DNA from: an uncultured Oscillospiraceae bacterium | GTDB lineage: Bacteria > Bacillota > Clostridia > Christensenellales > CAG-138 | Assembly: GCA_964393095.1 (NCBI GenBank) | Contig: CAYMSL010000002.1 | Location: 1 to 43,622, forward strand | Direction of reading: 5' to 3' | Length of the DNA stretch: 43,622 nucleotides | Part shown: piece after piece, positions 4,267 through 30,370 of the stretch | Numbering within the stretch: the first letter of the stretch is position 1 | Layout of the letters: every line of letters starts with the position of its first letter | Position numbers and translations under genes: made by a program | The notes under the pieces: generated by a model | What the model was told of the DNA's origin: nothing | Database searches by the model: none | Seen by the model: only the letters and a program-made list of their open reading frames with translations

Positions 4267-4434
4267 CGCCCGATCGAAGCCGCGGCATATACGCTGAAGC
4301 TGCGGCGCTTGATCCGCGCAGGGCTTAAAAGAGTGAAAATTTATGCGGGTTAAGCCGCCTTTGAATATGGCTACATAGGCCCGCGGACAATTCGCAGGCG
4401 CCGCGTGCAGCCTTGTTATTCGGAGAGAAGGTTT

Positions 4435-5235: not shown

Positions 5236-5245
5236 GGAGAAGAGG

Positions 5246-6373: not shown

Positions 6374-6376
6374 CGC

Positions 6377-7687: not shown

Positions 7688-7743
7688 GCGGACGCGTCCG
7701 CGTGCTCGGAAGGGCAGGGCGGGCAAGGAGGTGAAGCCGCCAC

Positions 7744-8673: not shown

Positions 8674-8685
8674 GGGGGAGTCGCT

Positions 8686-9612
8686 TTGCGGTACGTCGTA
8701 TTGGCCTGCACCATCGCAATATTCCTTGTTTTGATCGCGCTGCTCAGCGGCCTCGGCCGCAGGGGCGACGCGATGCTCCGCCGTTTTGCGCTGGTAAAGG
8801 ACGCCGAACGCTCCTATGGCGACGAGGAGCTGAAAAAGTCCTTTACGGAGCGTGTGTTCCGCCCGACCGTGAGGCGTATCACGGAGCGGGTCAAGCGGCT
8901 CGCCGGCAAGGGCAAAGCGCCGGGCGCGAGCAAGGCCAACCAAAAGCTCGACAGGCAGCTCAAAAGCGCGGGAATCGGCCTAACCGTACAGGAGTATACG
9001 TTCGTCAAGAGCCTGCTTTCACTCGTGTTTCTGCTTGGCGGCGTAGCGCTCTATCTGCTGCTGCCGATCGAGCAGATATACCGCCTGCTCATCGTGCTCG
9101 TGCTGCTTTGCATCCCCGTCTATGGCTCGAATTTCTTTCTGCGGGCGAAGGTCAAGGCGAGGCAGGAGGCCATCGTGCGCGACCTGCCGGATGTAATGGA
9201 CTTGCTTGTTGTAAGCGTGGAAGCCGGGCTAGGACTTGACGCGGCGATCGTGCGCCAGTATGCGAAGAACAAAAGCCCGGTGCTCAGCGAGCTCAACGGC
9301 GCGATCCGCGAGGTGCAGATGGGCGTTTTGCGCAAAAACGCGTTCAAGGAAATGGCCGACCGCTGCGATGTGAAGCAGCTTTCCGCGTTTGTAACGGCCT
9401 TCCTGCAGGCCGATCAGCTCGGCGTCTCGCTCAAGAGCGTGCTAAAGACGCAATCCGAACGCCTGCGCGTGGAGCGCAAGCAGCTTATTCAGGCCAAGGC
9501 GGCCAAGGCGCCGATCAAGATCATGCTGCCGACGGTGTTCTTTATCTTTCCCGTGATATTCATTATTTTGCTCGGCCCCGCCGCCGTCAGCCTGATCGCG
9601 GCGTTTCAATAG
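8686..9612 (+). CDS. tadC: TadC (T2SS-F family inner-membrane platform protein)
   Basis: TTG start 13 nt after the tadB stop. T2SSF-type domain (LPDVMDLLVVSVEAGLGLDAAI) and a terminal TM pair. It is the paralogous partner of tadB. Confidence 0.8.
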   Translation: MRYVVLACTIAIFLVLIALLSGLGRRGDAMLRRFALVKDAERSYGDEELKKSFTERVFRPTVRRITERVKRLAGKGKAPGASKANQKLDRQLKSAGIGLTVQEYTFVKSLLSLVFLLGGVALYLLLPIEQIYRLLIVLVLLCIPVYGSNFFLRAKVKARQEAIVRDLPDVMDLLVVSVEAGLGLDAAIVRQYAKNKSPVLSELNGAIREVQMGVLRKNAFKEMADRCDVKQLSAFVTAFLQADQLGVSLKSVLKTQSERLRVERKQLIQAKAAKAPIKIMLPTVFFIFPVIFIILLGPAAVSLIAAFQ

Positions 9613-9695: not shown

Positions 9696-10040
9696 ATGAA
9701 GGTGATTCCGATCAAACGAAACGGCGATACGATTGCGCATGTTTGGGATGCAAACAGCTATTTTACGCGCCTGCGCGGCCTGCTTGGGCGCGCGCTTCCC
9801 CGGGGCGGCGGGCTGATTTTGACGCCCTGCAACAGCATTCATACCTTTGGCATGCGGTATGCGATCGACGCGGTCTACCTCGATTGTAACGGCGTCGTGC
9901 TGCGCGTTGACGTCGATCTGCCGCGCGGCAGGGCCTGGCGGCCCCAGCGCGGGGCAAGAAGCGTTCTTGAGCTGGCGGCGGGAGAGGCGGCAGCGTATAA
10001 CATCCGTGCGGGCGATCGATTGGAGGTATGCCATGGTTAG
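9696..10040 (+). CDS. DUF192 (COG1430) domain protein
   Basis: AAGGAG (9684-9689) precedes ATG 9696. The motif block RLRGLLGR....GGLILTPCNSIHTFGMRYAIDAVYLDCNGVVLRV is typical of DUF192. Confidence 0.7.
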   Translation: MKVIPIKRNGDTIAHVWDANSYFTRLRGLLGRALPRGGGLILTPCNSIHTFGMRYAIDAVYLDCNGVVLRVDVDLPRGRAWRPQRGARSVLELAAGEAAAYNIRAGDRLEVCHG

Positions 10041-10920
10041 GGAGCCGGAATGGCGCGAGGAGAGCGTGGACACCCTGCGCAGCCGCATGGACGCGGAAGC
10101 GCGCTTTCATCGCGCGCTCGCGGGTTATGATCCGAATGAGGTGCGATCGTATCTTGAAGAGATCAAGCTTACGTTTGCCAAGCAGGCCAAGGCCGCAAAG
10201 CATGAGCAGGAGACGCTGATCGCCGACCTGAGCGCGGCTAAAACCGAGATCGATTCGCGCAACTGCGCGATCAAAGCCCTGCGGGAAACGATCAGCTCCC
10301 GCGAGGCGGAGCTGGCCGGCGCGAAGGAGCGCATCGCGGCGCTGCTGCAAAAGACAAAGGATTCCAAAGCGGAGTACGACGGCTACGATCGCCTGCGCGC
10401 GGCGATGAACAGCATGCGCGCTTCAAACGAGCGTACGCAGTTGCTTGAACGGGAGGTGCAGCAGCTTCGCGCAGCGCTTTCGCAGGCAAATGCCGTTTTC
10501 GAAGCGTGGAAGACCGAGCGGACGCACCTTAGCAGCGAACATGCGCGTCTCGGCGAAGAAAACGCGCGTTTATGCGAGGAGCTTTCGCAGCTGCGTGCGG
10601 AGATTGCGCAGATGCACGCCGCGCGGGACGCGGCTTGCGTAAGCGCCATGCCGAGCCCGGCGAACGAGTACTTGCCCGCTGAACAACCGGCATACTGGGG
10701 CGCGGCCTTTGAGCCGGCGCAGCCGGAGCCGTCAAGGGACACGGCGCCCCAGCTTGCGGACCGCCTTGCGAATATGCTTGATGAGGCTTCTGCCCTGATG
10801 GCCCAACTGCGGAGTCAGGAACTGCAGCGCGAGCCGGCCCCACAGCGCGCCGCGCAGCCGCGTATGCAGGTGCTTAGGCCCGACAAATCGTTTGGTGATC
10901 ATGGCACGGGAGGCAAGTAG
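10033..10920 (+). CDS. DivIVA-domain coiled-coil protein
   Basis: ATG 10033 after TGGAGG (10021-10026) overlaps the DUF192 stop by 8 nt. The motif FHRALAGYDPNEVRSYLEEI matches the DivIVA N-terminal signature (F....rGYd..eVd.fLd). About 170 aa of heptad-like, Ala/Glu/Arg/Leu-rich coiled coil follow, then a Pro/Gln-rich tail. Confidence 0.7.
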   Translation: MVREPEWREESVDTLRSRMDAEARFHRALAGYDPNEVRSYLEEIKLTFAKQAKAAKHEQETLIADLSAAKTEIDSRNCAIKALRETISSREAELAGAKERIAALLQKTKDSKAEYDGYDRLRAAMNSMRASNERTQLLEREVQQLRAALSQANAVFEAWKTERTHLSSEHARLGEENARLCEELSQLRAEIAQMHAARDAACVSAMPSPANEYLPAEQPAYWGAAFEPAQPEPSRDTAPQLADRLANMLDEASALMAQLRSQELQREPAPQRAAQPRMQVLRPDKSFGDHGTGGK

Positions 10921-10928
10921 CCGATCAG

Positions 10929-10955
10929 AAGCCGCCTAAACAGGGCGGCTTTTTA
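10929..10955 (+). terminator. Intrinsic terminator ending the Tad transcription unit
   Basis: AGCCGCC (10930-10936) pairs with GGCGGCT (10944-10950) across a 7-nt loop. TTTT follows. It lies 9 nt after the stop at 10920. Confidence 0.75.
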
Positions 10956-11226
10956 ATCGGCAGCCTCGCGGGGGTGGGTTCCTGACGCTACGGCGGATAC
11001 GGGACACGGGACAACGATCGCCTGTTCCATCAAAGAGCTGTTTTTTAACGAACCGGCGGGGCATGCTTTTGGGCAGGCCTCGCTTTTTTGCACGAAGTAA
11101 TGGGCGGATACAAGGCGGCAAGAAACGTTGCAGGATACCCGTTTGCGCGAAGGTTGCCGTATGGATGGAAACAATGCAGTAAATACTCGAATGGAAAGTA
11201 TTACGATGGAAATGAAAAAAACCATA

Positions 11227-11235
11227 TGGTATCAT
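11227..11235 (+). promoter_or_regulatory. Candidate extended -10 promoter element (TGgTATCAT) upstream of the EPS operon
   Basis: TGG-TATCAT lies in an AT-rich island (11160-11260). No convincing -35 was found. It would leave a leader of about 230 nt before ATG 11466. Confidence 0.25.
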
Positions 11236-11465: not shown

Positions 11466-14400
11466 ATGGCGCGGGAGGCCAAGCGGATTCTCATGATCAT
11501 GTTCGGCGCCGCTATGGCGCTGATTGCCGCGTGCGCGCCGCCCCAAAAGCGCGAGGCGCAAATCACGGCGTCACCGATTCCGCAGGTTACGGCGGCGCCG
11601 ACGGCGTATGTCTGGGAACCGAACGAATCCGCCCACGCGCTCGACGGTTACGGAATCATCAACGCCGCGTCCTATACCGGCTATCGATACGTTACGCGCG
11701 AGATCGCGGCGCGCCTGATCGCCGATATCACGGGTCTCGGTGCGGAGGCAAAGGCGGGGGAAGCGCATCCGTTCGTCGACGTTACGGGCGGCGCGGAGGC
11801 GCCGATCGCCCTATTGTATCGCCTTGATATCGTCGAGGGGCTGTCAAGCAACCGCTTCGGCGGGGACGAGCTCTGCGATCGCGAGACGTTCCTGCTTTAT
11901 TTATTAAGGGCGCTCGAGGTCGCAGGCGGCGCGCCGGCGACGCTCATGCAGGACGGCGTCGCGGCGGCTGCGGCGGAGCGGGGACTGACGGCGGATGCGG
12001 CGGCCGGTGACGAAATGCTCTCTATCGACCAGGCGTTCGACATCTGCTATAACGCGCTGTTCGTCCATATCGGAGACGGCACCCAGACGCTGCTTACGCA
12101 TTTGTATGCCCGGGGAATTTCCAACACGTCGGGCTGCGACATCGGCGAGGCCTATCGGATCGAGGGTGTCGAGGCGGCGCCGTTCTGGCGGGAAACGTTC
12201 GACGGCAAGACGCTCTTCGACGGCAACGTCGTCAATGCGGACAACAGGATTGATTGGTACGGCAGCAATACCCAAGGCGCGGAGAACCGGATTACCCGGG
12301 AAGGCCGCCTCGAACTTTCGGGTAACGATCAGTATCTTGTGGACAACCAGTGGATCGCGCTGCGAAAGGGGATTTTGCAGGGGCGCGAGAGCTTTGGCAT
12401 GAGTTTTACGCTCAACGTGCAGAACATGGCAAACGAGGGGAACGAGGCGCGCGCCGTGTTCCGCGTGATCCCGCGCACGGCCGACGCGAGGTTTACGAGG
12501 TATTACGCGGTCAATTATTATATGACGCTGCCGCTCGGGCCTTATCAATCGAACCTCGCGCGCTGCAAGTGGTCGATTACAAACACGAACGCGCCGAGCG
12601 GCACAAAACCGCTTGCCGAGGCGTATTTCCTGCTTGAAGAGGGCGTGGATTACGCCGCGCGCCTGCTGATTGAAAACACCGACGACGGCGTGCGCCTTTC
12701 GTTCTACATCGATGGGCCGGATCATGACGGCGCGGCAGGCCCGCTGCTTACATATACGGATAACTCGGAATATCGCATTTTGCAAAACGCCGCCGGCCCC
12801 GCCTTCGGCAGTTCGGGCTACCTTACCGCCGGCTGGGGCTACGCTTCTACGGTGCATGTTGACGACGTTGCGCTCTACGACCCTCTAGAGTTCGCCGCCG
12901 AAACGGCGCAGCTTGCCGCGTACGTAAACACGCCGCTCGTGCTAAACGGCGATGCGGCCGATGCGAGCCAAATGAGATATCTGGTGCGCCGCGGCGTGCT
13001 CCGGCCGTGCGGGCGCAATCTGGACTTTGAGGGCACCGTCGAGGTCGGGCAGCTTCTGGCCTCCGCACGCTATTTTGCCGGCGAGCATCTCTCTGCGGGA
13101 GAAACGCTTGCGGCGTTTACCGGAGCAATGCACCGCACGTTGTTTGGCGGCGCGGCGGAGGCGGATCTTACGCGTGACGTGACGCGTTATGAGGCGGCGC
13201 AGGTTGCCCTGCGCCTTCTGCCCGGCGAGCCGGCGACGGGCGACTACCGCGCTTTGTATGGGGACGCGCTGAACGAAACCTACCGAAGCGCCGTCTATTT
13301 CGCCGTGCAGAACAGCTACCTTCTGCTCGACGAAAACAACCGCTTTCGCGGCGACGAGCCGCTGACGCGCCGGGAGCTGCTGCATTTCTTTGCCTGCGCC
13401 GCGGACGCGCGGCTTCGGACGCTCAACCGCGCGCTGCAACTGCCCGCAATCCTCTCCGACAACGCCGTTTTGCAGGCCGACAAGCCAATTCCCATCAGCG
13501 GCAGGGGCATGAGCGGGGATACCGTGACCGTGACGTTTCACAAGCAGACCAAAAGGGCGAAGGTCGTCGACGGCCGTTGGTCGGTCGAGCTTGAAAGCGA
13601 ACCGTACGGCGGGCCGTACCGCCTCAGCGTCAGGGATTCTGGGCATAAGCTCTCGTTCGGCGGCATCTACGTCGGCGAGGTGATCGTCGTCGCCGGGCAG
13701 TCGAACGCGGAGATGTCCGTCTACGAGTCCGCAAACAACGCCGATACGCTCAGGCGGTTCAACAACCAGACGCGGGTAAGGCTGTTTCGCCCGGAGAGCC
13801 GCATGGCGGTTACGCCTCTAGCGGATACAAAGACGCGCTGGCAGGTCGCGGGGGACCCGTACAGCGAATATATTCTCGGATCGGCAAGCGCCATCGGCGT
13901 ATTCTGCGTGCAGGAACTGTTTGCGCTCAAGCCGGCGCTGAAAAACGTGCGTATCGGCATCATCCAGATCACCTACGGCGGCACGAGCATCGAGATGTTT
14001 CTGCCGTCCTCCGTAACGCAAACGCCGCGTTCCGACGACGAGGTGCTCGTTTCCGGCTTTTGGAACGGCTTCATGGCGGGGCTTACCCCCTACGCCGCGC
14101 GGGCGCTCGTCTACTATCAGGGCGAAAACAGCGCGCATTTGGGCTATCGTTACGAGCCGCTGCTCAACGACTACATCCGCGGCGTGCGCGATGCGTTTTA
14201 TGACGCGGCCTTGCCCGTACTGCTCGTGCAGCTTTCCGGATACGGCGACAACTACGCGCAGGACAACGACCTTTGGCCCGAGATACGCGAGGTGCAGATG
14301 CGTGTGGCGAACACGACGGAAAACGTCGGACTCGTAACCGCGATCGACCTCTCCGATCGAAACCCGCAGGAGATTCACCCTGTGCGTAAGCGGCCCGTCG

Positions 14401-15188
14401 GAAAACGGCTTGCATGCCTTGCGATGAAACTCGCCTATAGCGAGGATATCGGCGGGCTATCCGCACGGCTGACAAACGCGGTACTAAACGGCAAGACCTA
14501 CAGCTTAAGCTTCAGCGCGGCGGCGTTGACGCTCCGTGACGACGCGTACGGCGACGTGGCCTTTGAGGTGCTCGATTCGCAGGGCAGGTGGGTAGCGGCG
14601 CAGGCGCGCGTGGAGCGGGATACGCTATTGGTCTGGAGCGAACATGTGGATTTGCCGCGGGGCGTGCGCTACGCCTGGGCAAACTACCCGAAGGCCTGCC
14701 TCTTTGACGGGGCCGGATTGCCGGTGCTGCCGTTCAACACGACGAAGGACCTCGATACGCCGGTGGACGCGAAGCTGTTTACAACGAACGAACGACAGCT
14801 CAAGAAGGCGTATCACCTGCTCGAAACGGGCGATCTCGTCGTCAACCTTTCAAGGAATAACGCGGCGCGGCGCGTGCGGTTTGTCGACGCCTATGTCGTG
14901 GAATACAGCGACGGCGGCATCGCGGGCCAGTCGAGCGGGGACCGCGTGGCGCTGCTCGAAAAGCGCGGCGAGTGCGCGGGCGGAGGCGGTACCACAAGCG
15001 AGGTCGTCAGCCTTATGGGACACGGCTTAAAGGCGGGCGATTGGCTGCTCAACACAAAGCGGGAGGCGCTCACCGAGGTGATCGAGGTGCTCGATGGCGA
15101 TACGCTGCGGGTGCGTCCCGTTATGGGGCAGGGGGAGGGCGACATCTTTGAGCTTTATGAATGCAGGCGAATCATCACGGCGGAGTAA
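11466..15188 (+). CDS. Giant lipoprotein with SLH-like repeats, a beta-rich central region and a SASA-type (sialate O-acetylesterase-like) carbohydrate esterase domain
   Basis: I place the start at ATG 11466 (GGTGGAG lies 5 nt upstream), not at the track start 11088. This gives MAREAKRILMIMFGAAMALIAAC, a lipoprotein signal with lipobox IAAC. SLH-like segments are HPFVDVTGGAEAPIALLYRLDIVEGLSSNRFGGDELCDRETFLLYLLRAL and YFAVQNSYLLLDENNRFRGDEPLTRRELLHFF. The esterase motif is GEVIVVAGQSNAEMS, with a later GENSA. Confidence 0.7.
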   Translation: MAREAKRILMIMFGAAMALIAACAPPQKREAQITASPIPQVTAAPTAYVWEPNESAHALDGYGIINAASYTGYRYVTREIAARLIADITGLGAEAKAGEAHPFVDVTGGAEAPIALLYRLDIVEGLSSNRFGGDELCDRETFLLYLLRALEVAGGAPATLMQDGVAAAAAERGLTADAAAGDEMLSIDQAFDICYNALFVHIGDGTQTLLTHLYARGISNTSGCDIGEAYRIEGVEAAPFWRETFDGKTLFDGNVVNADNRIDWYGSNTQGAENRITREGRLELSGNDQYLVDNQWIALRKGILQGRESFGMSFTLNVQNMANEGNEARAVFRVIPRTADARFTRYYAVNYYMTLPLGPYQSNLARCKWSITNTNAPSGTKPLAEAYFLLEEGVDYAARLLIENTDDGVRLSFYIDGPDHDGAAGPLLTYTDNSEYRILQNAAGPAFGSSGYLTAGWGYASTVHVDDVALYDPLEFAAETAQLAAYVNTPLVLNGDAADASQMRYLVRRGVLRPCGRNLDFEGTVEVGQLLASARYFAGEHLSAGETLAAFTGAMHRTLFGGAAEADLTRDVTRYEAAQVALRLLPGEPATGDYRALYGDALNETYRSAVYFAVQNSYLLLDENNRFRGDEPLTRRELLHFFACAADARLRTLNRALQLPAILSDNAVLQADKPIPISGRGMSGDTVTVTFHKQTKRAKVVDGRWSVELESEPYGGPYRLSVRDSGHKLSFGGIYVGEVIVVAGQSNAEMSVYESANNADTLRRFNNQTRVRLFRPESRMAVTPLADTKTRWQVAGDPYSEYILGSASAIGVFCVQELFALKPALKNVRIGIIQITYGGTSIEMFLPSSVTQTPRSDDEVLVSGFWNGFMAGLTPYAARALVYYQGENSAHLGYRYEPLLNDYIRGVRDAFYDAALPVLLVQLSGYGDNYAQDNDLWPEIREVQMRVANTTENVGLVTAIDLSDRNPQEIHPVRKRPVGKRLACLAMKLAYSEDIGGLSARLTNAVLNGKTYSLSFSAAALTLRDDAYGDVAFEVLDSQGRWVAAQARVERDTLLVWSEHVDLPRGVRYAWANYPKACLFDGAGLPVLPFNTTKDLDTPVDAKLFTTNERQLKKAYHLLETGDLVVNLSRNNAARRVRFVDAYVVEYSDGGIAGQSSGDRVALLEKRGECAGGGGTTSEVVSLMGHGLKAGDWLLNTKREALTEVIEVLDGDTLRVRPVMGQGEGDIFELYECRRIITAE

Positions 15189-16861
15189 TGGCGATGGATA
15201 GCGGCGGCGGAGGGCCCGGCGGGGCCGCAATCGGGGGGGTAAAGGGCGCAAGGGCGGGTGCGTTTCCGTCGGCGCGCCAATGGACGCAGACGGCCGGCAC
15301 AGCGCCGTCCGGCAAACGGGAGCGCTTGCTCGCGCCGTTTCTCGCGGTGGCGGCGGCGCTTGTGATCCTGACGCTCGTGTTGTTTCTGCCGCCGTATGTC
15401 GGGATGGAGGACAACGGCGACTTCGCCCGCGTGACCTATGCCGAGGGGCTTTACGACCTGCCGGAAAACATAGACACGCGCTTTGACGGTTATTTCATCA
15501 AGGAATACGGCATTATGCGCTACTACAACGAGCACACGGGCACGGTCTTCTCCTCGCAGTTTTTGTTCCTCCGGCCCGCCATACTGCTCGATTGCCTGCT
15601 GACCTGCGACGACGTGTTCGACCTGCGGTTTCTCGCCGCCCTGACGTCGGCCTTCTTTCTTGCCACCCTTTGGTTTCTTGTCGATGCTTTGACCCGGCGC
15701 CTCTCGCGCGGCGCGGCGCTGCTGATTGCGGCCGTGAGCGTCTTTGTCTTTGCGGATACGGGCTATACGGCGTATTTCAACTCCTTCTACGCCGAGGCGC
15801 TGGCGTTTGCGAGCCTGCTTGGCTGCGCCGCCTGCGCCCTGCTCTACGAAGAGGGGCGCTATAACCGCTATGCGCTGCTCGGCGGCTTTTTCCTCTGCGG
15901 CATGCTGCTGACCTTTTCCAAGCAGCAGTACGCGCCGGTCGGCATACTGCTGGGCCTGCTCGGGCTGATCATCTGCCTGCGCGCGAACGGCCGGCTGTTT
16001 CGCTCGCTGGCCGCGGCGGCGGCGGCGGCGCTCGCGGTGGCGGGCGTCGTTACGTATCTGCTCATCTCCACCGAGTTTACGCACATCAACCTCTACCACG
16101 CGATGACGCGCGGCGTGCTGATCACCGCGGAAAGCCCGCCGGCGGCGCTTGCGGAGTTTGACATCGAGCCGCGCTACGAGCTGCTCGACGGCACGATCTA
16201 CTTCGATAAATACCCGGAGATCGATCCGGAAAGCGAGCTGCTGGAGCGGGAGTTTTACGATCGCTACAGCGTGTTTTCCATCGTGCGCTACTACGCCGGG
16301 CACCCGGCCGCCTTTACAGACATGCTCAGGCTCGCGGCGCGCAGCGCCTACCAAAACCGGCCGAGCATGGGCAACTATGAGCGCGGCAGCGGATATGGCC
16401 CGAACGCCGTTTCGCAGGTGTTTTCGCTGCATAGCCTGCTGAAGGCCGATGCGACGCCGCGTACGCTTGGCTATATCGTCATCTGGATGCTGGTGATGCT
16501 CGGCGTTCTCTATAAAAGACGCCTAAAGCAGCTGATCGTGGCGGACCTGATACTGTTGGGGTTATCGCAGATCGTCGTATCGATCATCGGGGCGGGGGAC
16601 GCCGACCTCGCCAAGCACATATTTCTCTATAACGCGGCCTACGACCTCGTCAACGTAATACTCTTTGCGCACGTTGTGCGTTTCTTCGACGGGCGGATAC
16701 AGGCGCGGCGGCTGCGCAGGATGGCGGACGCGATCGCCGAACGACCGGACGCGGCCGCACGTGAGACGCCCGCCGCCCTGGCGGCGGGATGCGGGAGCGC
16801 GCCAGGCATATCCGCAAACCTCGCGGTATGCGTCGATGACGGACGGGGGCGAAGGTGTTGA
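15188..16861 (+). CDS. Polytopic membrane protein, possibly a GT-C-fold glycosyltransferase (family not recognised)
   Basis: ATG 15188 overlaps the upstream TAA (TAATG). There are about 10 predicted hydrophobic helices. The first loop carries an acidic motif (PPYVGMEDNGDFARV). The Gly-rich first ~45 aa make the true start uncertain; an in-frame TTG near 15324 is possible. Confidence 0.55.
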   Translation: MAMDSGGGGPGGAAIGGVKGARAGAFPSARQWTQTAGTAPSGKRERLLAPFLAVAAALVILTLVLFLPPYVGMEDNGDFARVTYAEGLYDLPENIDTRFDGYFIKEYGIMRYYNEHTGTVFSSQFLFLRPAILLDCLLTCDDVFDLRFLAALTSAFFLATLWFLVDALTRRLSRGAALLIAAVSVFVFADTGYTAYFNSFYAEALAFASLLGCAACALLYEEGRYNRYALLGGFFLCGMLLTFSKQQYAPVGILLGLLGLIICLRANGRLFRSLAAAAAAALAVAGVVTYLLISTEFTHINLYHAMTRGVLITAESPPAALAEFDIEPRYELLDGTIYFDKYPEIDPESELLEREFYDRYSVFSIVRYYAGHPAAFTDMLRLAARSAYQNRPSMGNYERGSGYGPNAVSQVFSLHSLLKADATPRTLGYIVIWMLVMLGVLYKRRLKQLIVADLILLGLSQIVVSIIGAGDADLAKHIFLYNAAYDLVNVILFAHVVRFFDGRIQARRLRRMADAIAERPDAAARETPAALAAGCGSAPGISANLAVCVDDGRGRRC

Positions 16862-18153
16862 GACGTGTGTTTGCGGCAATCTTGGTTGCGGTCGCATTGG
16901 CTGCGCTGTTGCCCGTGCGGCCGGCGCGGGCGGAGGCGGCGCAGGCGCTCCTCGTCTATGAAGACGAGGAGCAGCGCAACGTGCTTAGCGGCCTCATCGA
17001 GGCCTGCGGGCTAAGGGTTGCGGCGGTTCGGGCGGGCGATTATATGGAAGGGCTGGCCGCGGGATATCCGTATGTGGTGCTTGGAAACGCCGGGCCGCTC
17101 AACGACGTGCTCAACCTCGGCAAGCGGGTCGTCTGCATCGGCGATTCGTTTGAGAGCATGCCGGGCGGCGAGGTGCGCGTGCTTCGGCAGGCGGTGCGCG
17201 CAAAGCTTTCGGCGTGCGGCAACAACCAGTCGGCGCTGCTTAAGCCGGGTACGCCGTATATCGCGGGTTACGGCGGGGAGACGATCGGCAGCGTGACGAT
17301 CCACGGCCAGGAATACCCGCTCTGTACCGTCGGCGAGACGATTTTTTACGCGCCCTATCTCAACGGCAACGATCTTTCGCTCTTTGCCGCGGCGCAATTG
17401 CTCAAGCGGTATTTCGGCTTGCCGGAGGGCGGTAAGCTGTATGTATTGGTGGATGCGGTGACCCCGTTCCACGACGCGTCCATGCTCGAGCGTACGGCGC
17501 GGCGCCTGTATGAAAACGGCATTCCCTTTATCATGAGCTTAATGCCCGTCTATTACAACACCGGCTATCCATCCTTTACGCGCTATACGGATGCGCTGAG
17601 GTACATACAGTCTCTGAGCGGTTCGTTTGTGCTCCATGAGCCGATCGTTACCGGCAACGAGCTTGTGGGCGACGACCTTGAAACGCGCATGAACAAGGCG
17701 CGCGCGGCTTTTAAAGAAAACGGCGTGCATGTCTTTAGCGCCGAGGCGTTTCCCTACCGGGTTCCCTTGGCGCTGCTTGAGGCGGTTGAACCGGTCGATG
17801 AGGTATTTATCCGCATGCCGCTCGATATGGCGGCCACATTCGACGTGCCGGGCGACGAGGATTCGCTCGACGCCGCGATCGGGTTTGTGCAGCGAAACCG
17901 CCTGCAGTTCGGGGATTACCGGCGCTTTTTTACAAACGCGTCGTATTCCTATATGGAGGAGCCGCCCGAAGAGGATTTTGTCTACCGTAAAAAAGAGGAG
18001 TCCCGCTATGCGTTCCTCGTCAACGCCGGCAATCGCATGCTGCTTGCCGTCGTGCTCCTCAGCGCCGCCCTGATCATCGGGCTGATGCTGCGGGGTCGGC
18101 GCTTGTACCGGGAGAAGTTTTTCCGCGAAAAACCCGCGCGAAAGGGGGAGTGA
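16855..18153 (+). CDS. Exported DUF2334-like (polysaccharide-deacetylase-fold, YdaL-like) protein with a C-terminal TM anchor
   Basis: GTG 16855 overlaps the upstream stop by 7 nt. Signal peptide AAILVAVALAALLPVRPARAEA. The block LYVLVDAVTPFHDASMLERTARRLYENGIPFIMSLMPVYYN resembles the DUF2334 core (R.EDVsp......l..i...L...giPf.iavIP.y.n). C-terminal TM helix MLLAVVLLSAALIIGLML. Confidence 0.55.
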   Translation: MLRRVFAAILVAVALAALLPVRPARAEAAQALLVYEDEEQRNVLSGLIEACGLRVAAVRAGDYMEGLAAGYPYVVLGNAGPLNDVLNLGKRVVCIGDSFESMPGGEVRVLRQAVRAKLSACGNNQSALLKPGTPYIAGYGGETIGSVTIHGQEYPLCTVGETIFYAPYLNGNDLSLFAAAQLLKRYFGLPEGGKLYVLVDAVTPFHDASMLERTARRLYENGIPFIMSLMPVYYNTGYPSFTRYTDALRYIQSLSGSFVLHEPIVTGNELVGDDLETRMNKARAAFKENGVHVFSAEAFPYRVPLALLEAVEPVDEVFIRMPLDMAATFDVPGDEDSLDAAIGFVQRNRLQFGDYRRFFTNASYSYMEEPPEEDFVYRKKEESRYAFLVNAGNRMLLAVVLLSAALIIGLMLRGRRLYREKFFREKPARKGE

Positions 18154-18157
18154 ACGC

Positions 18158-19402
18158 ATGCTGGTTGATCCGCTCGGGCTGATCTCGCTCATCTGCATCT
18201 GGTTTTTGCTCATGGTCAACCAGATTCTCGTGGTTGCGGGCTATATCTACTATATGCATGAGGAAAAAGCCGCGCCGAAGCAGCTTACGCGCCACCCGTA
18301 TTTGAGCGTTCTCGTGCCTGCGCACAACGAGGAAAAGGTGATCGTGCGCACCGTCGAATCGCTGCTTGCTTTCGACTACCCGCCCGATCGCTATGAGATC
18401 ATCGTCATCAACGACAACTCGTCCGATGGGAGCCGCGAACTGCTCGAAGGCGTTCAAGCGGCGCACCCGCAGCGCGCGCTGCACATCATCCATACGGACG
18501 CCGTGACGGGCGGCAGGGGCAAGTCCAACGCGCTCAACATCGGTTTTCGCGCCGCACTCGGCAGCTATGTGGCGGTGTACGACGCGGACAACACGCCCGA
18601 GGCGGACGCGCTAAGCCGCCTTGTGGCCGAGATCGAAAGCGACCCCACGCTCGGGGCCGTGATCGGCAAATTCCGCACGCGCAACCGAAACGTCAACCTG
18701 CTCACGCGCTTTATCAACATCGAGACGCTCTCGTTCCAGTGGATGGCGCAGGCGGGCAGATGGCAGCTCCTGGAACTCTGCACGATACCCGGCACAAACT
18801 TTCTCATACGCCGCTCAATCCTCGACGCAATCGGCGGCTGGGACGTGTGCGCGATGGCGGAGGACACCGAGCTGAGCTTTCGCATCTACGCGATGGGCTA
18901 CAAGATCAAGCTCGTGCCGCGCGCCGTGACCTGGGAGCAGGAGCCGCAGACGCTTAAGGTCTGGTTTCAGCAGCGGGTGCGCTGGGTCAAGGGCAACCTC
19001 TATGTGCTCTTCAAGAACTTCCCCCTGCTTTTTCGTAAAAAGGCGCAGCGCATCAAGTTTGACCTATTGTACTTTATGTCGATCTACTTTTTGCTGCTCG
19101 GGGCGCTCGTGACCTCCGACGCGCTGTTTTTACTCAACGCGCTCGGATTGATTCGTCTGACGCTCGTGAGCCTGAGTATATTCCTCTGGCTTATGGCGAT
19201 CTTCCTCTTCGTCATCAGCGTGTTTGTTACGCTGACGACCGAAAAGGGGGAGATGCGCCTGTCAAACCTGTTTATCACCGTGCTCATGTACTTTACGTAC
19301 TGCAAACTATGGATGGTGGTAGCCGCCTACGGGCTTGGGCGGTATCTTTTGGACGCACTGTTTAGGAAGGAATTTCACTGGTACAAGACGGAACGCTTCT
19401 AG
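18158..19402 (+). CDS. Processive family-2 glycosyltransferase (polysaccharide synthase, YdaM/PgaC/BcsA-like catalytic core without a PilZ domain)
   Basis: AAGGGGGAG RBS. One N-terminal TM segment. Motifs VPAHNEE, INDNSSDGS, YDADN (DxD), PGTN, AEDTEL and QQRVRW (QxxRW). About four C-terminal TM helices follow. The protein ends right after the membrane domain. Confidence 0.85.
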   Translation: MLVDPLGLISLICIWFLLMVNQILVVAGYIYYMHEEKAAPKQLTRHPYLSVLVPAHNEEKVIVRTVESLLAFDYPPDRYEIIVINDNSSDGSRELLEGVQAAHPQRALHIIHTDAVTGGRGKSNALNIGFRAALGSYVAVYDADNTPEADALSRLVAEIESDPTLGAVIGKFRTRNRNVNLLTRFINIETLSFQWMAQAGRWQLLELCTIPGTNFLIRRSILDAIGGWDVCAMAEDTELSFRIYAMGYKIKLVPRAVTWEQEPQTLKVWFQQRVRWVKGNLYVLFKNFPLLFRKKAQRIKFDLLYFMSIYFLLLGALVTSDALFLLNALGLIRLTLVSLSIFLWLMAIFLFVISVFVTLTTEKGEMRLSNLFITVLMYFTYCKLWMVVAAYGLGRYLLDALFRKEFHWYKTERF

Positions 19403-19420
19403 GCGAAAAGGAGAGACGAT

Positions 19421-21595
19421 ATGAGGAGAACGACGACGCTGCTATTGGCCATATGCGCGCTGGCGCTGATATGGCCGGTCAACGCGCAGGCCGCGGGCAT
19501 TGAGGCGGGAGGAGCGGCCCAAGGCGGCGCGCTGGCCGAAACGGAGGAGGAAACGGGGCAGCCGGAAACGGCGGCGCCCGCCGTAAGCACCGCACCGCCT
19601 GTGCTGCAACTGCAGGAGGGCGGCTATGTTTCGACGACGCCCTTTGGCGCGGAGCATTACATGACGGGCCTTTTTTCAACGATCACCGAGGGGTTTAGCG
19701 TCGGCGACTGGACGATAGCGGACGCGCTGCTGACATTGAGCCTTTCGACGACGCAGCTGGCCTCGGAGTACCTCTCCACGCTCACAATTTCGATCAACGG
19801 CGTGCGCTTTTACTCGGAAACCGTACCGCCAAGCGACGGGCTGAGGCGGGAGCTGGCCGTGAGAATCCCCGTCGAGCACATCGTTGGCGGCTATAACGTG
19901 ATCGGGATCGAAGGCTACATCCGCACGTATAACGGCCTTCCGTGCGTGGACGACGTGACCAATGCAAACTGGCTCAACGTCTTTAGCGAATCGCTCGTTG
20001 AGGTTTCTTATACGCCGAACGCCGCATGCAGGACGATCGGGGAATTCTACGACTGCTTTACTTCGATCGACGCGCTCGAAAACAGCCAGAGCGCGGTGAT
20101 CGTGCCGACGGATTTTGACGACGACGAACTTGCGGCCGCCTTTGTCACGCTTGCGGGCGTCTCTAAACAGGCCACAAAGAGCTACCGCAACATCGAGCTG
20201 CTCGCGGCCGACAGCCTGAAAGCGGCGGCGGACAGGAAGTATATCATCTGCATCGCGAAGCCCGGCTGGCTGCCGGCGGAGCTGCAAACGCCGCTTGCCG
20301 AGGCCGGCGGCACGGGAGGCGAGATGGCGACGCTGCTATTCGTACCCGGTACGCCGAACGTGCTCATCGTGACGGCGGAGGACGGTGCGGGACTCAAAAA
20401 AGCTGCGGCGGCGCTCGCCAATGCGGCGTTCATGCGCCAGATGACGGGGCCGCTCAAGCGCATCGGCGTGAACGAGGACGTTCTGATGAGAACGGCGGGT
20501 GTCGCGCAATATACCGCGCTTACCGAAAACGGCACCTACCTCGACGGCGCCTTCCGGCAGGAGGCGGCCTACTTCATCGACTTTGCGAACAACCGCAAGC
20601 TCGCCTCCGGCAGCGAGATCGAACTCGTGTTTCGCTATTCGAAAAACCTCGATTTTGACCGCTCGCTCGTGACGGTATACGTTAACGACGTGCCCGTTGG
20701 CAGCAGAAAACTCTCGGCGGAGCGGGCGGACGGCGACCGCCTCGTGCTGAGCATACCGACCGACGCCGAAACGACGGGCAGCTTTACGCTGAAGGCGGCC
20801 TTCGACCTTGAGATCAAAGACCTTTGGTGCACGCTTCGCCAGGGCGAGACGCCATGGGCGTACATCTCGCCCGAATCGACGCTCCGGCTCAACTCCGCCG
20901 AAACGCCGTACTATCTCTTTGAAAACTACCCGTATCCGTTTGTTTCGGACGGCGCGTTCAACCGCCTTGTGCTCGTGCTGCCGCAGAGCAACGCGGCCGT
21001 CGATCTTGCCCTGACGGGCAGATTGATGCTTACGCTCGGACGCTTTATCAAATACAACACCGGCGAGCTAAGCGTCGTGCGCGCGTCGCAGCCGGGCAGT
21101 CTCGAGGGCAAAAATGTGATCGCGCTCGGCACGCCCGGCAACAACGCCGTGATCAAAGGCCTCAACGAACATCTGTATTTCCGCTTCGACGAAACGGGCG
21201 GCGCGATACAATCCAACGAGAAGCTGCTCATCGAGGCAAACTATGGGCGTACGCTTGCAAGTGCGCAGCTCATCGAATCGCCGTATTCGACAGACGAGCG
21301 AAACGCGATACTCGTCCTGGCGAGCGCCGACGGGGCCGACCTTGGCAAGGCGCTTACCCGCTTTGGCGATACGGCGGAACTCTGGAAACTCTATGGAGAC
21401 GGCTTTGTGACCGACGGCGAAGCGCTGATGCAATACCGCTTCAAGCAGGAGAACGCGAAAGCGTTGCGCAGCGGCGACCGGCTCGGCGAACGCTCCGACG
21501 TAAGACGGCTGCTTTGCATCGCGCTTGCGGCGGCGCTGCTGCTGGCGACAGCCGCCGTATTGCTGTTTGTCCGCTACAGGAGGAAGGTCAAATGA
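19421..21595 (+). CDS. BcsB-like (YdaN-like) synthase partner protein
   Basis: AAAGGAGAG RBS. Signal peptide MRRTTTLLLAICALALIWPVNAQA. A ~680-aa extracytoplasmic region follows. A single C-terminal TM anchor LLCIALAAALLLATAAVLLFVRYRRK matches BcsB topology. Size and position next to the GT2 synthase support the call. Confidence 0.65.
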   Translation: MRRTTTLLLAICALALIWPVNAQAAGIEAGGAAQGGALAETEEETGQPETAAPAVSTAPPVLQLQEGGYVSTTPFGAEHYMTGLFSTITEGFSVGDWTIADALLTLSLSTTQLASEYLSTLTISINGVRFYSETVPPSDGLRRELAVRIPVEHIVGGYNVIGIEGYIRTYNGLPCVDDVTNANWLNVFSESLVEVSYTPNAACRTIGEFYDCFTSIDALENSQSAVIVPTDFDDDELAAAFVTLAGVSKQATKSYRNIELLAADSLKAAADRKYIICIAKPGWLPAELQTPLAEAGGTGGEMATLLFVPGTPNVLIVTAEDGAGLKKAAAALANAAFMRQMTGPLKRIGVNEDVLMRTAGVAQYTALTENGTYLDGAFRQEAAYFIDFANNRKLASGSEIELVFRYSKNLDFDRSLVTVYVNDVPVGSRKLSAERADGDRLVLSIPTDAETTGSFTLKAAFDLEIKDLWCTLRQGETPWAYISPESTLRLNSAETPYYLFENYPYPFVSDGAFNRLVLVLPQSNAAVDLALTGRLMLTLGRFIKYNTGELSVVRASQPGSLEGKNVIALGTPGNNAVIKGLNEHLYFRFDETGGAIQSNEKLLIEANYGRTLASAQLIESPYSTDERNAILVLASADGADLGKALTRFGDTAELWKLYGDGFVTDGEALMQYRFKQENAKALRSGDRLGERSDVRRLLCIALAAALLLATAAVLLFVRYRRKVK

Positions 21596-22437
21596 AGCCG
21601 TTACGAAAGAACCTGCGCACGGATCTGGCCTTTCTTCTATTGCTCGGGCTGCTTTTCGCGTTTTGCGTGTTTTTTCTCGAGCAGCCCTATCGCATGGAGA
21701 ATTTTCTGCTCGCGGCGGCGGTGCTGATCGTGGTGCTGATCGCGTATTTTACAAACCTCACCGTTGGGCTTGCCGTCAATGCCGCGCTGATTCTGCTCTA
21801 TGGCGCCTATGTTGTGTTTCAGAGCCTTACGCGAGGCGTCGCGGTGCGATCGCATGTGTATTTCTGGCTTGTGATGTCGCCCGCGCTGACGACGGCCTTC
21901 TCGCTTTTTACGATGTCGTCGGCCGACCTGCAGGCGCGTACGATAGAACTGGAACAGAGGCTCGAGGCGAGCGCGACGCTCCACGAGGACACGAAGCTCA
22001 AAAACCTGCGGGCGTTTGAACACGACGCGCATATCTATCAAAGCATCGCGCGGCGCTACGGCCTCGACCTTGGCGTGCTGACGATTTGCTTTCAATATGA
22101 GAAAGAGCTTGAGCGGCTCTCCCATCGGGAGGGCATGCGCCGGGTGGTGCTGCGCGTAGCCGAGACGGTGAGGGCGGCCACACGCGCGGAGGACGAGCTG
22201 TATCAACTGGACGGGGACGAGATTACGTTCGCGCTGCTGCTGCTAACGAAGCAAGAGGGCGGCGTCGCGCTGCGCGCGCGCATTCGGGAGCAAATCGCGC
22301 AGATCGATACAAACGACATCCTCAATACGCGGCAACTGGTGCTGGATATGCGCCTGGGCCTCGCGTTTGACGACGGCACGGGAAACGCGCTTGAACTGCT
22401 GGCGGCCGCGAAGGATACGATGCAGTATGACGTGTAG
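21592..22437 (+). CDS. 4-TM degenerate GGDEF-domain protein with intact I-site (YdaK-like candidate c-di-GMP receptor)
   Basis: The start overlaps the upstream stop as ATGA (21592-21595). Four N-terminal hydrophobic helices. The GGDEF-fold landmarks are degenerate: TKLKNLRAFEHD replaces D.LT.L.NRRaf, LTICFQYEKE replaces the DxDhFK metal site, and DGDEI (22210-22224) replaces GGDEF. RAED (22183-22194) sits exactly five residues upstream, the canonical RxxD I-site spacing. Confidence 0.75.
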   Translation: MKPLRKNLRTDLAFLLLLGLLFAFCVFFLEQPYRMENFLLAAAVLIVVLIAYFTNLTVGLAVNAALILLYGAYVVFQSLTRGVAVRSHVYFWLVMSPALTTAFSLFTMSSADLQARTIELEQRLEASATLHEDTKLKNLRAFEHDAHIYQSIARRYGLDLGVLTICFQYEKELERLSHREGMRRVVLRVAETVRAATRAEDELYQLDGDEITFALLLLTKQEGGVALRARIREQIAQIDTNDILNTRQLVLDMRLGLAFDDGTGNALELLAAAKDTMQYDV

Positions 22438-23977
22438 GGCCGCGCGGCGGCGATGGCAGTCATGGGCCGTTTTCCCGGCATTTCTGCTGCTGATGGCGTG
22501 CACGGGGCAAGGCGCGCCGCAAGCCGCCGAAAGCGCTGTGCCCGAGGACGCGGCGGCCGTCGCGGCGGCGGATAGCGAATGGCACTACGAGGCGGAGGAG
22601 GCCGAGCGCTCCGATCTATGCCGCTATGCGCGCACGGAGGACGGCGGCTTTGTCGAGGCGGAGGACGGCGGCTATGTCGGCCTCTGGGCGGACAGCGCGT
22701 GCAGCCTGACCTTCCACGTGCTCGCGCCCGTCGACGGCGTGTACGAGCTGGATTTTCTCGCGGCCGCCTGCAAGACGGAAAGCTACGATACGGTACGCGT
22801 CAACGAGCGTACGCTTTACGAAGCGCTCCATATCGCGGCATCAACGCCCGGCAGCGCCACGATCAAGGCGCGCCTCAAAGAGGGCGGCAACACGGTAAGC
22901 GTATTCGCGGGCTGGGGCTGGTTTTACCTCGACCGTCTCAGCGTACGCCCGGGCGAAGGCATCTCCGACGACGTCTACCGCTCCGCGTTCCGGCTCTCGA
23001 ACAAAAACGCCTCCGCGAACGCCCGGCGGCTCATGCGCTATCTTGCCAGCGAGTATGGCGTACGCACGCTCTCCGGCCAGTACGCCTCCGAAGGCGGCAT
23101 AGATTCGCCGGAGGTGCGGGCGATCCACGCGCTGACGGGGAAATACCCGGCGATCCTCGGCTTTGATTTGATGGACTATTCGCCGAGCCGGGTGATGCGC
23201 GGCGCGCAGACAAAGCAGGTCGACGACGCGCTCGCCTGGGCGAATCAAGGCGGTATCGTCGCGCTGATCTGGCACTGGAACGCGCCGAAAGACCTCGTCG
23301 ATTCCGCCGGTCAGCCCTGGTGGCGCGGGTTCTACACCGAGGCCACGACGTTTGACCTCGACGCGGCGCTCAATGGGCGCGACCCTGCGGGCTACCGGCT
23401 GATCTTGCGCGATCTTGACGCGATCGCCGAGGCGCTCAAGCCGCTTGCGGCCGCGGACGTACCCGTATTGTGGCGGCCGCTCCACGAGGCAAGCGGCGGC
23501 TGGTTTTGGTGGGGCGCATACGGGGCCGACAACTACATCGCGCTCTGGCGGCTCATGTACGAGCGCTTTACCCGCATGCACGGCCTCGACAACCTGCTCT
23601 GGGTCTACAACGGGCAGGACGCGGCCTGGTATCCGGGCGACGCGTACGTCGACCTCATCGGCGAGGACGTCTATACGGCGCCGCGGGACTACGAAAGCCA
23701 CTATAACCGCTTCGAACGGGCGCTTTCCTATACCGATGTGCCGAAGATCATCGGTCTTTCGGAAAACGGCGCGATTCCCGACCCGGAACTGCTCGCGGCG
23801 GACAACGCGCGCTGGTCGTTTTTTATCACCTGGTGCGAGCGCTACGCCGTCGATGCGGAAAGCGGCGCCATTTCGGATGTGTATAACGACCTCGCGCACT
23901 GGAAAAGGGTCTACGAAGACGAGGCCGTCGTCACGCTCGACGAGCTGCCGCGTCGTGCGTTTTACTTGCCGGGTTGA
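22427..23977 (+). CDS. Lipoprotein with an N-terminal CBM6/35-like module and a GH26 (beta-mannanase family) catalytic domain
   Basis: ATG 22427 overlaps the upstream gene by 11 nt. Lipobox FLLLMAC. CBM-like pattern WHYEAEEAE....GGYVG....[17 protein letters not shown]....GGNTVSV....YLDRLSV. GH26 signatures [24 protein letters not shown] (acid/base HE) and IIGLSENG (candidate nucleophile). Confidence 0.8.
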
Positions 23978-24000: not shown

Positions 24001-24401
24001 ATGAGGAAAGCGCTGCTGGTATTCGGCACAAGACCCGAGGCGGTTAAAATGTGCCCGCTTGTCAACGAACTGAGGCGGCGGGCGGGCATTACCGCCGTCG
24101 TATGCGTGCCGGCAAGGGCATATCTTGTGCTGACCGACAGCGGCGGCGTGCAGGAGGAGGCAACTTCGCTTGGCAAACCTACGCTCGTGCTGCGCGCGAC
24201 CACCGAGCGCCCGAGGGCATCGCCGCGGGGACGCTGAAGCTTGTGGATACCGAAACAGAGGATATCCGCCGCGCTTGTATGCGCCTACTGACCTCCGCGG
24301 AGGCCTGCCGGCACATGAGCGTGACGGCAAACCCCTACGGCGACGGCTTTGCTTCACGGCGGATCGCCGATATCCTCGAGCGTGGAGAAGATTGGATATA
24401 G
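24001..24401 (+). pseudogene. wecB: UDP-N-acetylglucosamine 2-epimerase (wecB/mnaA) relic: large internal deletion plus a frameshift
   Basis: ATG 24001 after GTGGAGGG. The first 36 aa [36 protein letters not shown] form the WecB N-terminus. At about 24105-24115 they join directly to the C-terminal block [30 protein letters not shown]. The reading frame then shifts near 24211-24214 (cgcccgagggc where ccggagggc is expected). It continues as [11 protein letters not shown]...NPYGDGFASRRIADIL. About 230 central residues of a normal ~380-aa enzyme are missing. Confidence 0.8.
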
Positions 24402-24427: not shown

Positions 24428-24472
24428 AAAAAGACCTCCCGGCGGGCCGAAACCCTGCCGGAAGGTCTTTTT
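24428..24472. terminator. Bidirectional intrinsic terminator between the wecB relic and the P-type ATPase gene
   Basis: AAAAAGACCTCCCGGC pairs with GCCGGAAGGTCTTTTT (one mismatch). The A-run and T-run flanks allow it to terminate both convergent transcripts. Confidence 0.8.
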
Positions 24473-24486
24473 CATGTGAAAACGGT

Positions 24487-27207
<2,721 letters not shown>

Positions 27208-30121: not shown

Positions 30122-30370
30122 ACAAACCTCTTTTACAGATGTCCGTTGTCTGGTAAGCACTCATGTGCAGTATAACACGCAAAGAGGACAAACGGAACGC
30201 TTTCCTGTGCGGCGGCCTGTTAAACGCACGCGAAGATAACAGGATACGGCGCGCGGGAAAGCGCGCTCCGGCGGCGCGGCAAAGGCCCGCGGCGTTATCG
30301 ACGACCTGTGAAATACATTTATTCTTGAATCGTGCGATATTTCGCGTATAATCTCCTTGAGGAGCGTGAC

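Follow-up and report, generated by a model that had tools for sequence, protein, structure and literature searches.

A probable Pss-type exopolysaccharide operon with two added lipoproteins and two lost partner genes in an uncultured Clostridia member

The 43,622-nucleotide contig CAYMSL010000002.1 (assembly GCA_964393095.1, an uncultured Oscillospiraceae bacterium), which is called the window throughout, carries seven open reading frames (ORFs), g1 to g7, between positions 11466 and 23977. All lie on the plus strand and none is broken. An earlier note made from the sequence alone had described them as a cyclic di-GMP (c-di-GMP)-gated exopolysaccharide (EPS) operon with a core like that of Bacillus subtilis ydaKLMN and three non-canonical partners. 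Here we describe the structural features of this locus and its relationship to the Pss system of Listeria. Genes g2 to g6 match the content and order of pssABCDE, and the locus is likely an orthologue of that synthase-dependent EPS system, with the mechanism proposed below. The Pss/Yda machinery is known already. What is distinctive here is that two surface enzymes have been added and two partner genes lost.

The seven genes are tightly packed. The successive junctions from g1/g2 to g6/g7 measure -1, -7, +4, +18, -4 and -11 nt, and the junction sequences include TAATG at 15186-15190, a 7-nt overlap at 16855-16861, ATGA at 21592-21595 and an 11-nt overlap at 22427-22437; every coordinate that the earlier note gave for the genes, overlaps and gaps was confirmed on the sequence. 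Two start codons allow another placement. In g2 the Shine-Dalgarno spacing favours an ATG at 15194 over the one at 15188, an uncertainty of a few codons, and a public gene call begins g1 at a GTG at 11439 instead of 11466. Neither choice alters the packing. The GC content of the window is 57-64%.

Terminator-like matches within the operon are at background level (21 versus 17.2 +/- 3.6 in shuffled sequences) and the strong hairpin first appears after g7, in keeping with the earlier claim that no terminator interrupts the genes. This hairpin is common to the operon and a convergent P-type ATPase gene. Another strong hairpin with a T-run (z = -5.0) ends the gene upstream, and the unit is therefore bounded at approximately 10955 and 24461 (Table 1). 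The candidate promoter found by consensus scan approximately 230 nt 5' of g1 is weak, as the number of sigma-70-type matches equals the shuffle expectation. The g1 leader has no Rfam match even at E <= 1 and a folding z-score of +0.46, with no riboswitch or unusual structure. The arrangement is non-random: of 74 loci in other genomes that could be classified, 47 share the core order. The seven genes constitute a real operon.

Table 1. Features of the operon and its immediate surroundings in the window
Feature	Position	Strand	Description
c-di-GMP-I riboswitch RF01051	1136-1224	+	69.9 bits (gathering score 35)
Tad/Flp pilus operon	1334-9612	+	complete
114-aa ORF	9696-10040	+	
357-aa ORF	9847-10920	+	no Pfam match
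Strong hairpin and T-run	10926-10954		ends the gene upstream of the operon
Candidate sigma-70-type promoter	11207-11235	+	TGGAAA, 17-nt spacer, TATCAT, extended TG
g1, lipoprotein, 1240 aa	11466-15188	+	lipobox LIAAC; helical repeats, lectin-like domain, Ig-like domain, SASA/CE20-type SGNH esterase, further C-terminal domain
g2, PssA orthologue, 557 aa	15188-16861	+	polytopic WsfD-family GT-C-like hexosyltransferase (NCBIfam NF051875)
g3, PssB/YdaL-like exported protein, 432 aa	16855-18153	+	signal peptide, amidotransferase-like domain, DUF2334, C-terminal transmembrane anchor
g4, PssC/YdaM-type processive synthase of glycosyltransferase family 2, 414 aa	18158-19402	+	N- and C-terminal transmembrane helices, no PilZ
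g5, PssD/YdaN-type BcsB-like protein, 724 aa	19421-21595	+	signal peptide, single C-terminal transmembrane anchor (transmembrane scan)
g6, PssE/YdaK-type c-di-GMP receptor candidate, 281 aa	21592-22437	+	multi-pass transmembrane N-terminus, degenerate GGDEF
g7, lipoprotein, 516 aa	22427-23977	+	lipobox LLMAC; CBM35 and GH26 of endo-beta-1,4-mannanase type
Dead UDP-GlcNAc 2-epimerase (wecB/mnaA type)	24001-24401	+	residues 1-32 fused to ~269-357; frameshift near 24215
Intrinsic terminator, bidirectional	24439-24461	+	8-bp stem, 7 GC pairs, T-run; -26.2 kcal/mol, z = -4.8
P-type ATPase gene	24487-27207	-	convergent with the operon

The first core gene, g2, scores 462 bits (1.9e-138) on the NCBIfam model 'glycan biosynthesis hexose transferase WsfD', on which PssA of Listeria marthii scores 565 bits. 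It has no match in the Pfam copy searched, although its relatives do carry Pfam YfdI_N; YfdI is a prophage GtrS-type transferase. A transmembrane (TM) scan finds approximately 8-9 hydrophobic or TM segments in g2. The motif EDNGDF directly follows TM1 (residue 74), and the pattern [DN][DN]GD[FY] occupies this place in 54 of 78 family members. Most of the others have a related D/N-D/N-G variant there and a few are N-terminally truncated. Sequence searches of the Protein Data Bank (PDB) with g2 and g3 returned nothing useful.

The g3 product is a borderline member of DUF2334, scoring 22.7 bits on the Pfam model and thus slightly under the cut-off of 26. This model (PF10096) does recognize 12 of 14 g3 homologues as well as L. 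marthii PssB, the latter with 29.9 bits. The AlphaFold2 (AF2) model (mean predicted local distance difference test score, pLDDT, 73.7) shows, at the N-terminus, an alpha/beta domain resembling those of glutamine amidotransferases and, after it, a deacetylase-fold barrel. The closest folds are the amidotransferase domains of HisH and GuaA and the carbohydrate deacetylase Agd3 (6NWZ). Correspondence of g3 to PssB was found by tblastn in 80 loci. At 432 aa g3 is shorter by approximately 70-90 residues than the PssB proteins of Listeria and Carnobacterium (~501-522 aa).

The synthase, g4, scores 119 bits on the Pfam families of glycosyltransferase family 2 (GT2), has no PilZ match and carries DAD at residue 142, AEDTE at 234 and QQRVRW at 271. 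It is 63-76% identical to its orthologues, the nearest being a GT2 from an 'uncultured Christensenella sp.' metagenome-assembled genome (MAG) at 76%, and all positions that are invariant among Clostridia, Carnobacterium and Acetobacterium are conserved in it. Searches for exact copies of g4 and g5 turned up no public contig, so that the organism is placed through its relatives. The gene for g5 starts 18 nt after g4; its product matches Pfam BcsB with 139 bits (1.7e-40), and this domain (PF03170) is present in all 108 g5 homologues. The last core gene, g6, encodes a candidate c-di-GMP receptor. Three N-terminal helices are clear at the TM-scan threshold, and the GGDEF domain passes the Pfam threshold with 27 bits. 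An intact RxxD I-site motif, RAED at residues 198-201, is followed by ELYQL and then DGDEI at 207-211, so that RAED, five residues and DGDEI are arranged as in PssE and YdaK, both of them proven c-di-GMP receptors. Across the family, 73 of 78 members keep the R of RxxD and 73 keep its D, and the GGDEF motif is degenerate in all. Profile searches placed g5 in the BcsB family and g3 among DUF2334-like proteins, as proposed before; the earlier identifications of g4 as a processive synthase with the full motif set and no PilZ, of g5 as a 724-aa BcsB-like protein with signal peptide and C-terminal anchor, and of g6 as a membrane-anchored degenerate GGDEF protein likewise stand.

The two outer genes of the operon encode lipoproteins. 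The large one, g1, passes the Pfam threshold for SASA (PF03629, 48 bits) and has the catalytic block GQSNAE at residue 744, which is nearly invariant in the alignment. Its C-terminal half matches PDB entries 7KMM (1e-41; CE20-type 'sialate O-acetylesterases') and 9H4U ('carbohydrate esterase'). Helical, weakly SLH-like repeats form two sets on either side of a concanavalin-A-like domain. An AF2 model of residues 46-695 (pLDDT 80.7) accordingly has two helical-repeat blocks around a jelly roll, and its best folds are legume lectins and the Hc portion of botulinum neurotoxin (BoNT). The full length scores 25 bits on SLH (PF00395; cut-off 20.8), yet no single stretch passes alone, and the N-terminal segment reaches 19.3 bits, under the cut-off. 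SLH is recorded in none of 36 full-length g1 relatives, and no SLH structure is among the top 50 fold matches. The esterase in the earlier reading of g1 as an SLH-like/SASA-esterase protein is thus borne out, and the identity of the repeats is not confirmed. Only about 37 protein clusters have the full g1 architecture, and their contigs also carry a BcsB-like gene.

The second lipoprotein, g7, is the carbohydrate-binding module (CBM) and glycoside hydrolase (GH) protein that had been recognized before. It scores 254 bits (3.7e-75) on Pfam GH26 (PF02156), CBM35 also passes, and it has both catalytic glutamate motifs, PLHE (351-354) and SENG (445-448). In the PDB it matches 3ZM8, the mannanase PaMan26A, at 5e-90.

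To place the operon among its relatives, 85 related loci from isolate genomes and MAGs, gathered from searches with g5 and g4, were mapped by tblastn; with the window the set holds 86 sequences. In a genome scan alone, at least 563 species-representative Firmicute genomes encode a relative of the synthase. The 47 loci that share the core order of the window have the layout PssB>GT2>BcsB>GGDEF at the end of the core. A second layout, PssA>GGDEF>PssB>GT2>BcsB, accounts for approximately 22 of the 74 classifiable loci and is found in Clostridium and Lachnospiraceae. A few of the 74 have no PssA and open with a hydrolase followed by GGDEF, as in B. subtilis ydaJKLMN. PssA is present in 78 of the 86 loci. 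In this comparison of neighbourhoods the core order recurs, and g1 and g7 are clade-specific.

The closest characterized system is that of Listeria. In L. marthii and L. fleischmannii the genes run PssA>PssB>GT2>BcsB>GGDEF, identical to g2-g6 in content and order. Identity to the L. marthii proteins is 64-65% for GT2, 45% for PssA, 41% for GGDEF, 38% for BcsB and 29% for PssB. In Listeria the GT2 is encoded by pssC and the BcsB orthologue by pssD; the operon ends with pssE, whose product is the I-site c-di-GMP receptor without which no EPS is made (Chen et al. 2014, PMC4125290). The system of L. monocytogenes comprises pssA-E (lmo0527-0531) plus pssZ. Compared with it, the window adds the g1 esterase lipoprotein on the 5' side and the CBM35-GH26 lipoprotein g7 on the 3' side, lacks GH126 and has a dead epimerase; it also comes from a high-GC, uncultured host within the Clostridia. 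Every Pss hallmark that could be looked for in the window was found except the GH126 hydrolase.

The likeness to the B. subtilis Yda system is one of parts. All of its component types are in the window, namely YdaK (a 4-TM degenerate GGDEF receptor with RxxD), YdaL (DUF2334), YdaM (GT2) and YdaN (BcsB-like), and in this the earlier match to ydaJKLMN was right. It did not identify the closest system, as the order of g2-g6 is that of pssA-E. The B. subtilis order is hydrolase, GGDEF, YdaL, GT2 and BcsB (PMC13274460); that operon has no PssA-type gene, whereas the window has PssA, places the receptor after BcsB and lacks a YdaJ-type hydrolase. Among the related loci, L085 from a Bacillales bacterium has a Yda layout. 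The comparison is one of component types and gene order, B. subtilis ydaJKLMN lying outside the 80 best genome loci.

Other synthase systems share fewer features. With Bcs the locus has in common a processive GT2 with the D, DxD, ED and QxxRW motifs, a BcsB-family partner and predicted c-di-GMP activation. It differs in that g4 has no PilZ, the receptor is a separate degenerate GGDEF protein, and the hydrolase is GH26 (GH126 in relatives) and not the GH8 BcsZ. A cellulose synthase was rejected as the identity of g4, which reaches 82 bits on TIGR03030 against a cut-off of 699 and lacks PilZ. The best NCBIfam match of g4 is PgaC_IcaA, and a hexosamine-type donor would be a further likeness to the poly-N-acetylglucosamine (PNAG) systems IcaADBC and PgaABCD. 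A PNAG synthase was also rejected: g4 scores 180 bits on TIGR03937 against a cut-off of 422, there is no IcaD/PgaD or IcaB/PgaB, and a BcsB-like subunit is present instead (PMC4125290). Finally, g2 recalls WsfD/WsfH of Paenibacillus alvei and Gtr O-antigen glucosylation, since it belongs to the WsfD family and is predicted to transfer an alpha-1,6 hexose from a lipid-linked donor onto N-acetylmannosamine (ManNAc). Here the S-layer glycan or O-antigen would be replaced as acceptor by a synthase-made EPS, and the operon shows neither a donor synthase of WsfH/GtrB type nor a GtrA flippase.

Two genes that the nearest relatives keep are missing or dead in the window, and the earlier account of the gene content overlooked both. 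In these relatives (loci L001, L002, L006, L007, L025, L026 and L087-L089) a gene for a lipoprotein of approximately 370 aa lies between PssA and PssB. It is a GH126 protein, matching PDB 3REN (CPF_2247) at 8e-55 and Listeria PssZ (6R2M) at 6e-9; in L001 the PssA-PssB interval with this gene spans 6024-7136. GH126 is a Pss-specific hydrolase family (PMC7479077) and occurs within 10 kb in 68 of the 86 loci. It has no tblastn match anywhere in the window. Listeria pssZ is unlinked from its operon, and therefore a GH126 copy may exist outside the window. At the place of the missing gene, the last ~40 residues of g2 (after about residue 520; window 16745-16861) have no counterpart in relatives and overlap g3 by 7 nt.

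The second loss is the epimerase. Three-frame translation and tblastn with the epimerases of L001, L002 and L003 revealed its remnant between g7 and the terminator, with the interior deleted and the frame shifted (Table 1). The intact protein of a relative is a non-hydrolysing epimerase (TIGR00236 wecB, 506 bits), and a wecB-type gene closes the operon in L001, L002, L006 and L087-L089. Of the 85 related loci, 26 have an epimerase no more than 10 kb away; with the remnant in the window the count is 27 of 86. A second assembly, L086 (ERZ15184953), is 95.5% identical to the window at the nucleotide level. It has the same 7-nt PssA/PssB overlap and lacks the sequence equivalent to window 24003-24362. 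An assembly artefact as the cause of the two losses is ruled out by this independent assembly, with the same overlap and a larger epimerase deletion. The losses of GH126 and the epimerase are real and lineage-specific because L086 shares both.

The retained genes are under purifying selection. Ratios of nonsynonymous to synonymous substitution (dN/dS) between the window and L086 are 0.19, 0.23, 0.14, 0.14, 0.19 and 0.27 for g2 to g7, with 0.13 for the neighbouring ATPase gene. With values of 0.14-0.27, the trimmed operon is therefore probably still functional. The GH26 protein g7 probably now supplies the hydrolase function in place of GH126, as judged from the gene content.

The origin of the added lipoproteins can be traced in part. 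In a metagenome scan all g7 relatives of at least 55% identity lie inside Pss operons, and those of 37-53% identity lie outside them. The GH26 of g7 was recruited from ordinary mannanases, because its nearer relatives are in Pss operons, the more distant ones are outside, and one of the latter is catabolic. A g1-type SASA protein and GH26 occur together only in the window's clade and, rearranged, in Petroclostridium. In the window's clade the two genes flank the Pss core. In Petroclostridium sp. X23 (L084) both lie 3' of it: GH126, GH26 and a 1040-aa g1-like SASA protein (13733-19782) follow BcsB on the same strand, in a locus of the layout PssA>GGDEF>PssB>GT2>BcsB. The linkages of SASA and GH26 to Pss cores are two independent associations, which suggests that the pair travels as a module. 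In two other loci (L107, 4329-12750, and L141, 2456-5029) a GH26 gene whose product is ~50% identical to g7 in the catalytic domain adjoins genes for DUF5696 proteins (720-740 bits). L107 also has ABC transporter permeases and a GH2 beta-mannosidase, and both look like catabolic mannan loci.

The polymer of such machinery, which the earlier note took to be chemically unidentified, has a known structure in Listeria. Its Pss is {4)-b-ManNAc-(1-4)-[a-Gal-(1-6)]-b-ManNAc-(1-} (PMC13492145; PMC5422440), in which alpha-1,6-linked Gal branches off a beta-1,4-ManNAc backbone. The founding member of the PssA family, WsfD, putatively transfers glucose from a lipid carrier to a ManNAc residue in alpha-1,6 linkage and so creates a branch (PMC2943079); by analogy, a ManNAc chain branched with alpha-1,6 hexose would be in line with this chemistry. 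In YdaK the substitutions R202A and D205A, at the equivalent I-site positions, abolish EPS production (PMC5422440).

The following mechanism is proposed for the operon in the window. The GT2 g4 and the BcsB-like g5 would polymerize and export a beta-1,4-linked ManNAc chain from UDP-ManNAc. Binding of c-di-GMP to the RxxD I-site of g6 would turn the complex on, and g2, with a lipid-phosphate-linked sugar as donor, would add the alpha-1,6 hexose branch to ManNAc on the membrane's outer face. The DUF2334-like PssB/YdaL is essential in both the Listeria and the B. subtilis systems. As membrane-tethered lipoproteins, g1 and g7 most likely trim or release the mannan-like polymer. UDP-ManNAc would be supplied by another epimerase elsewhere in the genome; the wecB-type epimerase linked to the operon in relatives is consistent with UDP-ManNAc as the donor. 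The window contains a c-di-GMP-I riboswitch, which indicates that the organism uses c-di-GMP. In Carnobacterium maltaromaticum (L004) a PAS-GGDEF-EAL gene (13124-15553), a candidate source or sink of c-di-GMP, directly follows the PssE-like gene; nothing comparable was seen in the window.

We suggest, as a tentative possibility, that GH26 and the lectin-bearing CE20-type esterase were recruited, in a Christensenella-like clade and independently in Petroclostridium, as processing enzymes of a ManNAc Pss, and that the GH126 PssZ became dispensable and hence was lost. If true, the GH26 would have acquired a new specificity, for beta-1,4 linkages of ManNAc, and the Pss variant would be O-acetylated or otherwise esterified. 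That the loss of GH126 has been tolerated argues for a GH26 now cutting the ManNAc backbone. Several observations weigh against this proposal and the reading of the locus on which it is built. In its catalytic domain g7 shares ~50% identity with bona fide beta-mannanases and with the GH26 of catabolic mannan loci, and a literature search returned no GH26 acting on ManNAc polymers. The SGNH esterase needs an O-acetylated substrate, while the operon encodes no O-acetyltransferase; with the mannanase similarity, this urges caution. For the identity of the polymer the basis is a synthase 64-65% identical to Listeria PssC, and a dead epimerase gene. An undecaprenyl-phosphate (Und-P)-hexose synthase, a flippase and a diguanylate cyclase were not seen in the window. 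Moreover, pssZ is reportedly required for Listeria EPS; if so, its absence could mean reduced or altered function.

This last point touches on whether the operon is decaying and non-functional, with the losses of GH126 and the epimerase as the first steps of pseudogenisation. Two genes kept in all nearest relatives are indeed missing or dead, and the deletion is further advanced in L086. Seven ORFs are nevertheless intact in two independent assemblies, the catalytic and I-site motifs are preserved, and the dN/dS values are near that of the housekeeping-type ATPase gene, so that decay is very improbable. The interpretation of the earlier note, a YdaKLMN-like core with three non-canonical partners making a chemically different polymer, draws on genuine features: YdaK-, YdaL-, YdaM- and YdaN-type domains are all found, the SASA and GH26 genes are real additions limited to one clade, and the loss of the linked epimerase leaves room for an altered sugar donor. 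Two of its three additions stand, the SASA lipoprotein and the CBM35-GH26 protein. The third, the 557-aa GT-C-like protein, is on its WsfD score and its wide occurrence a canonical PssA orthologue. The gene order, moreover, is that of pssA-E and not ydaJKLMN, the synthase keeps all of the residues invariant from Clostridia to Carnobacterium and Acetobacterium, and the nearest relatives hold an intact wecB in the operon. We therefore regard a different polymer as quite unlikely.

An alternative of another kind leaves the Pss core as it is and removes the lipoproteins from it: g1 and g7 may be ordinary plant-hemicellulose enzymes directed at acetylated galactoglucomannan (an acetyl esterase and an endo-beta-mannanase), whose genes share a transcript with those for an adhesion EPS that is not their substrate. 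GH26 and an acetyl esterase are the classic pair for acetylated mannan. The fungal mannanase PaMan26A, to which g7 is so similar, has the same CBM35-GH26 layout, and the GH26 relatives outside Pss operons include the one in L107 with its ABC permeases and GH2 beta-mannosidase. Against these stand the positions of g1 and g7, which bracket the EPS genes with overlaps of 1 nt and 11 nt, and the tie of SASA and GH26 to Pss cores in two independent operon layouts. Each GH26 relative at or above 55% identity sits in a Pss operon, g1-type proteins share contigs with a BcsB-like gene, and there is no mannan transporter, GH2/GH130 gene or regulator nearby. Synthase-dependent EPS operons, furthermore, normally hold a dedicated hydrolase, and GH126 could be lost here. 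A hemicellulolytic role is thus unlikely, and the reading of the locus as a Pss orthologue is preferred.

Polymers of the Pss/Yda type drive aggregation and tolerance of desiccation and disinfectants in Listeria, and spore adhesion in B. subtilis. The present analysis extends their machinery to at least 563 Firmicute species, uncultured high-GC Clostridia included. The window amounts to a natural experiment in which the synthase, the BcsB-like protein, the receptor, PssA and PssB have been kept, GH126 and the linked epimerase dropped, and GH26 and an esterase gained. Cleavage of poly-ManNAc by the GH26, if real, would constitute a new enzyme activity; the protein would be a candidate reagent against Listeria Pss biofilms, and it would show that unrelated GH families can fill the hydrolase slot of synthase-dependent EPS systems. 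Otherwise the locus is one more Pss-family operon.

The surroundings of the operon hold other surface-related genes. Upstream lies the complete Tad/Flp pilus operon, approximately 110 nt 3' of the c-di-GMP-I riboswitch, which is the sole riboswitch in the window. The pilus genes encode an A24 prepilin peptidase, TadE, a TadG-like protein, RcpC/CpaB, a TadZ-like ParA ATPase, the CpaF/TadA ATPase, TadB and TadC. A riboswitch-controlled pilus locus thus adjoins a probably receptor-gated EPS locus, the two being separated by the 114-aa and 357-aa ORFs and the hairpin that follows them (Table 1). On the other side, beyond the ATPase gene, is a second glycan-related neighbourhood with genes at 28568-30160 (minus strand), 30332-31975, 32676-33335 and 36732-38120 (all plus strand). 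Several long ORFs within it have no Pfam match. Its recognizable content is a GtrII-type polytopic glucosyltransferase (PF14264), a CotH kinase, DUF4956 and a Bac_transf priming sugar transferase with CoA_binding_3.

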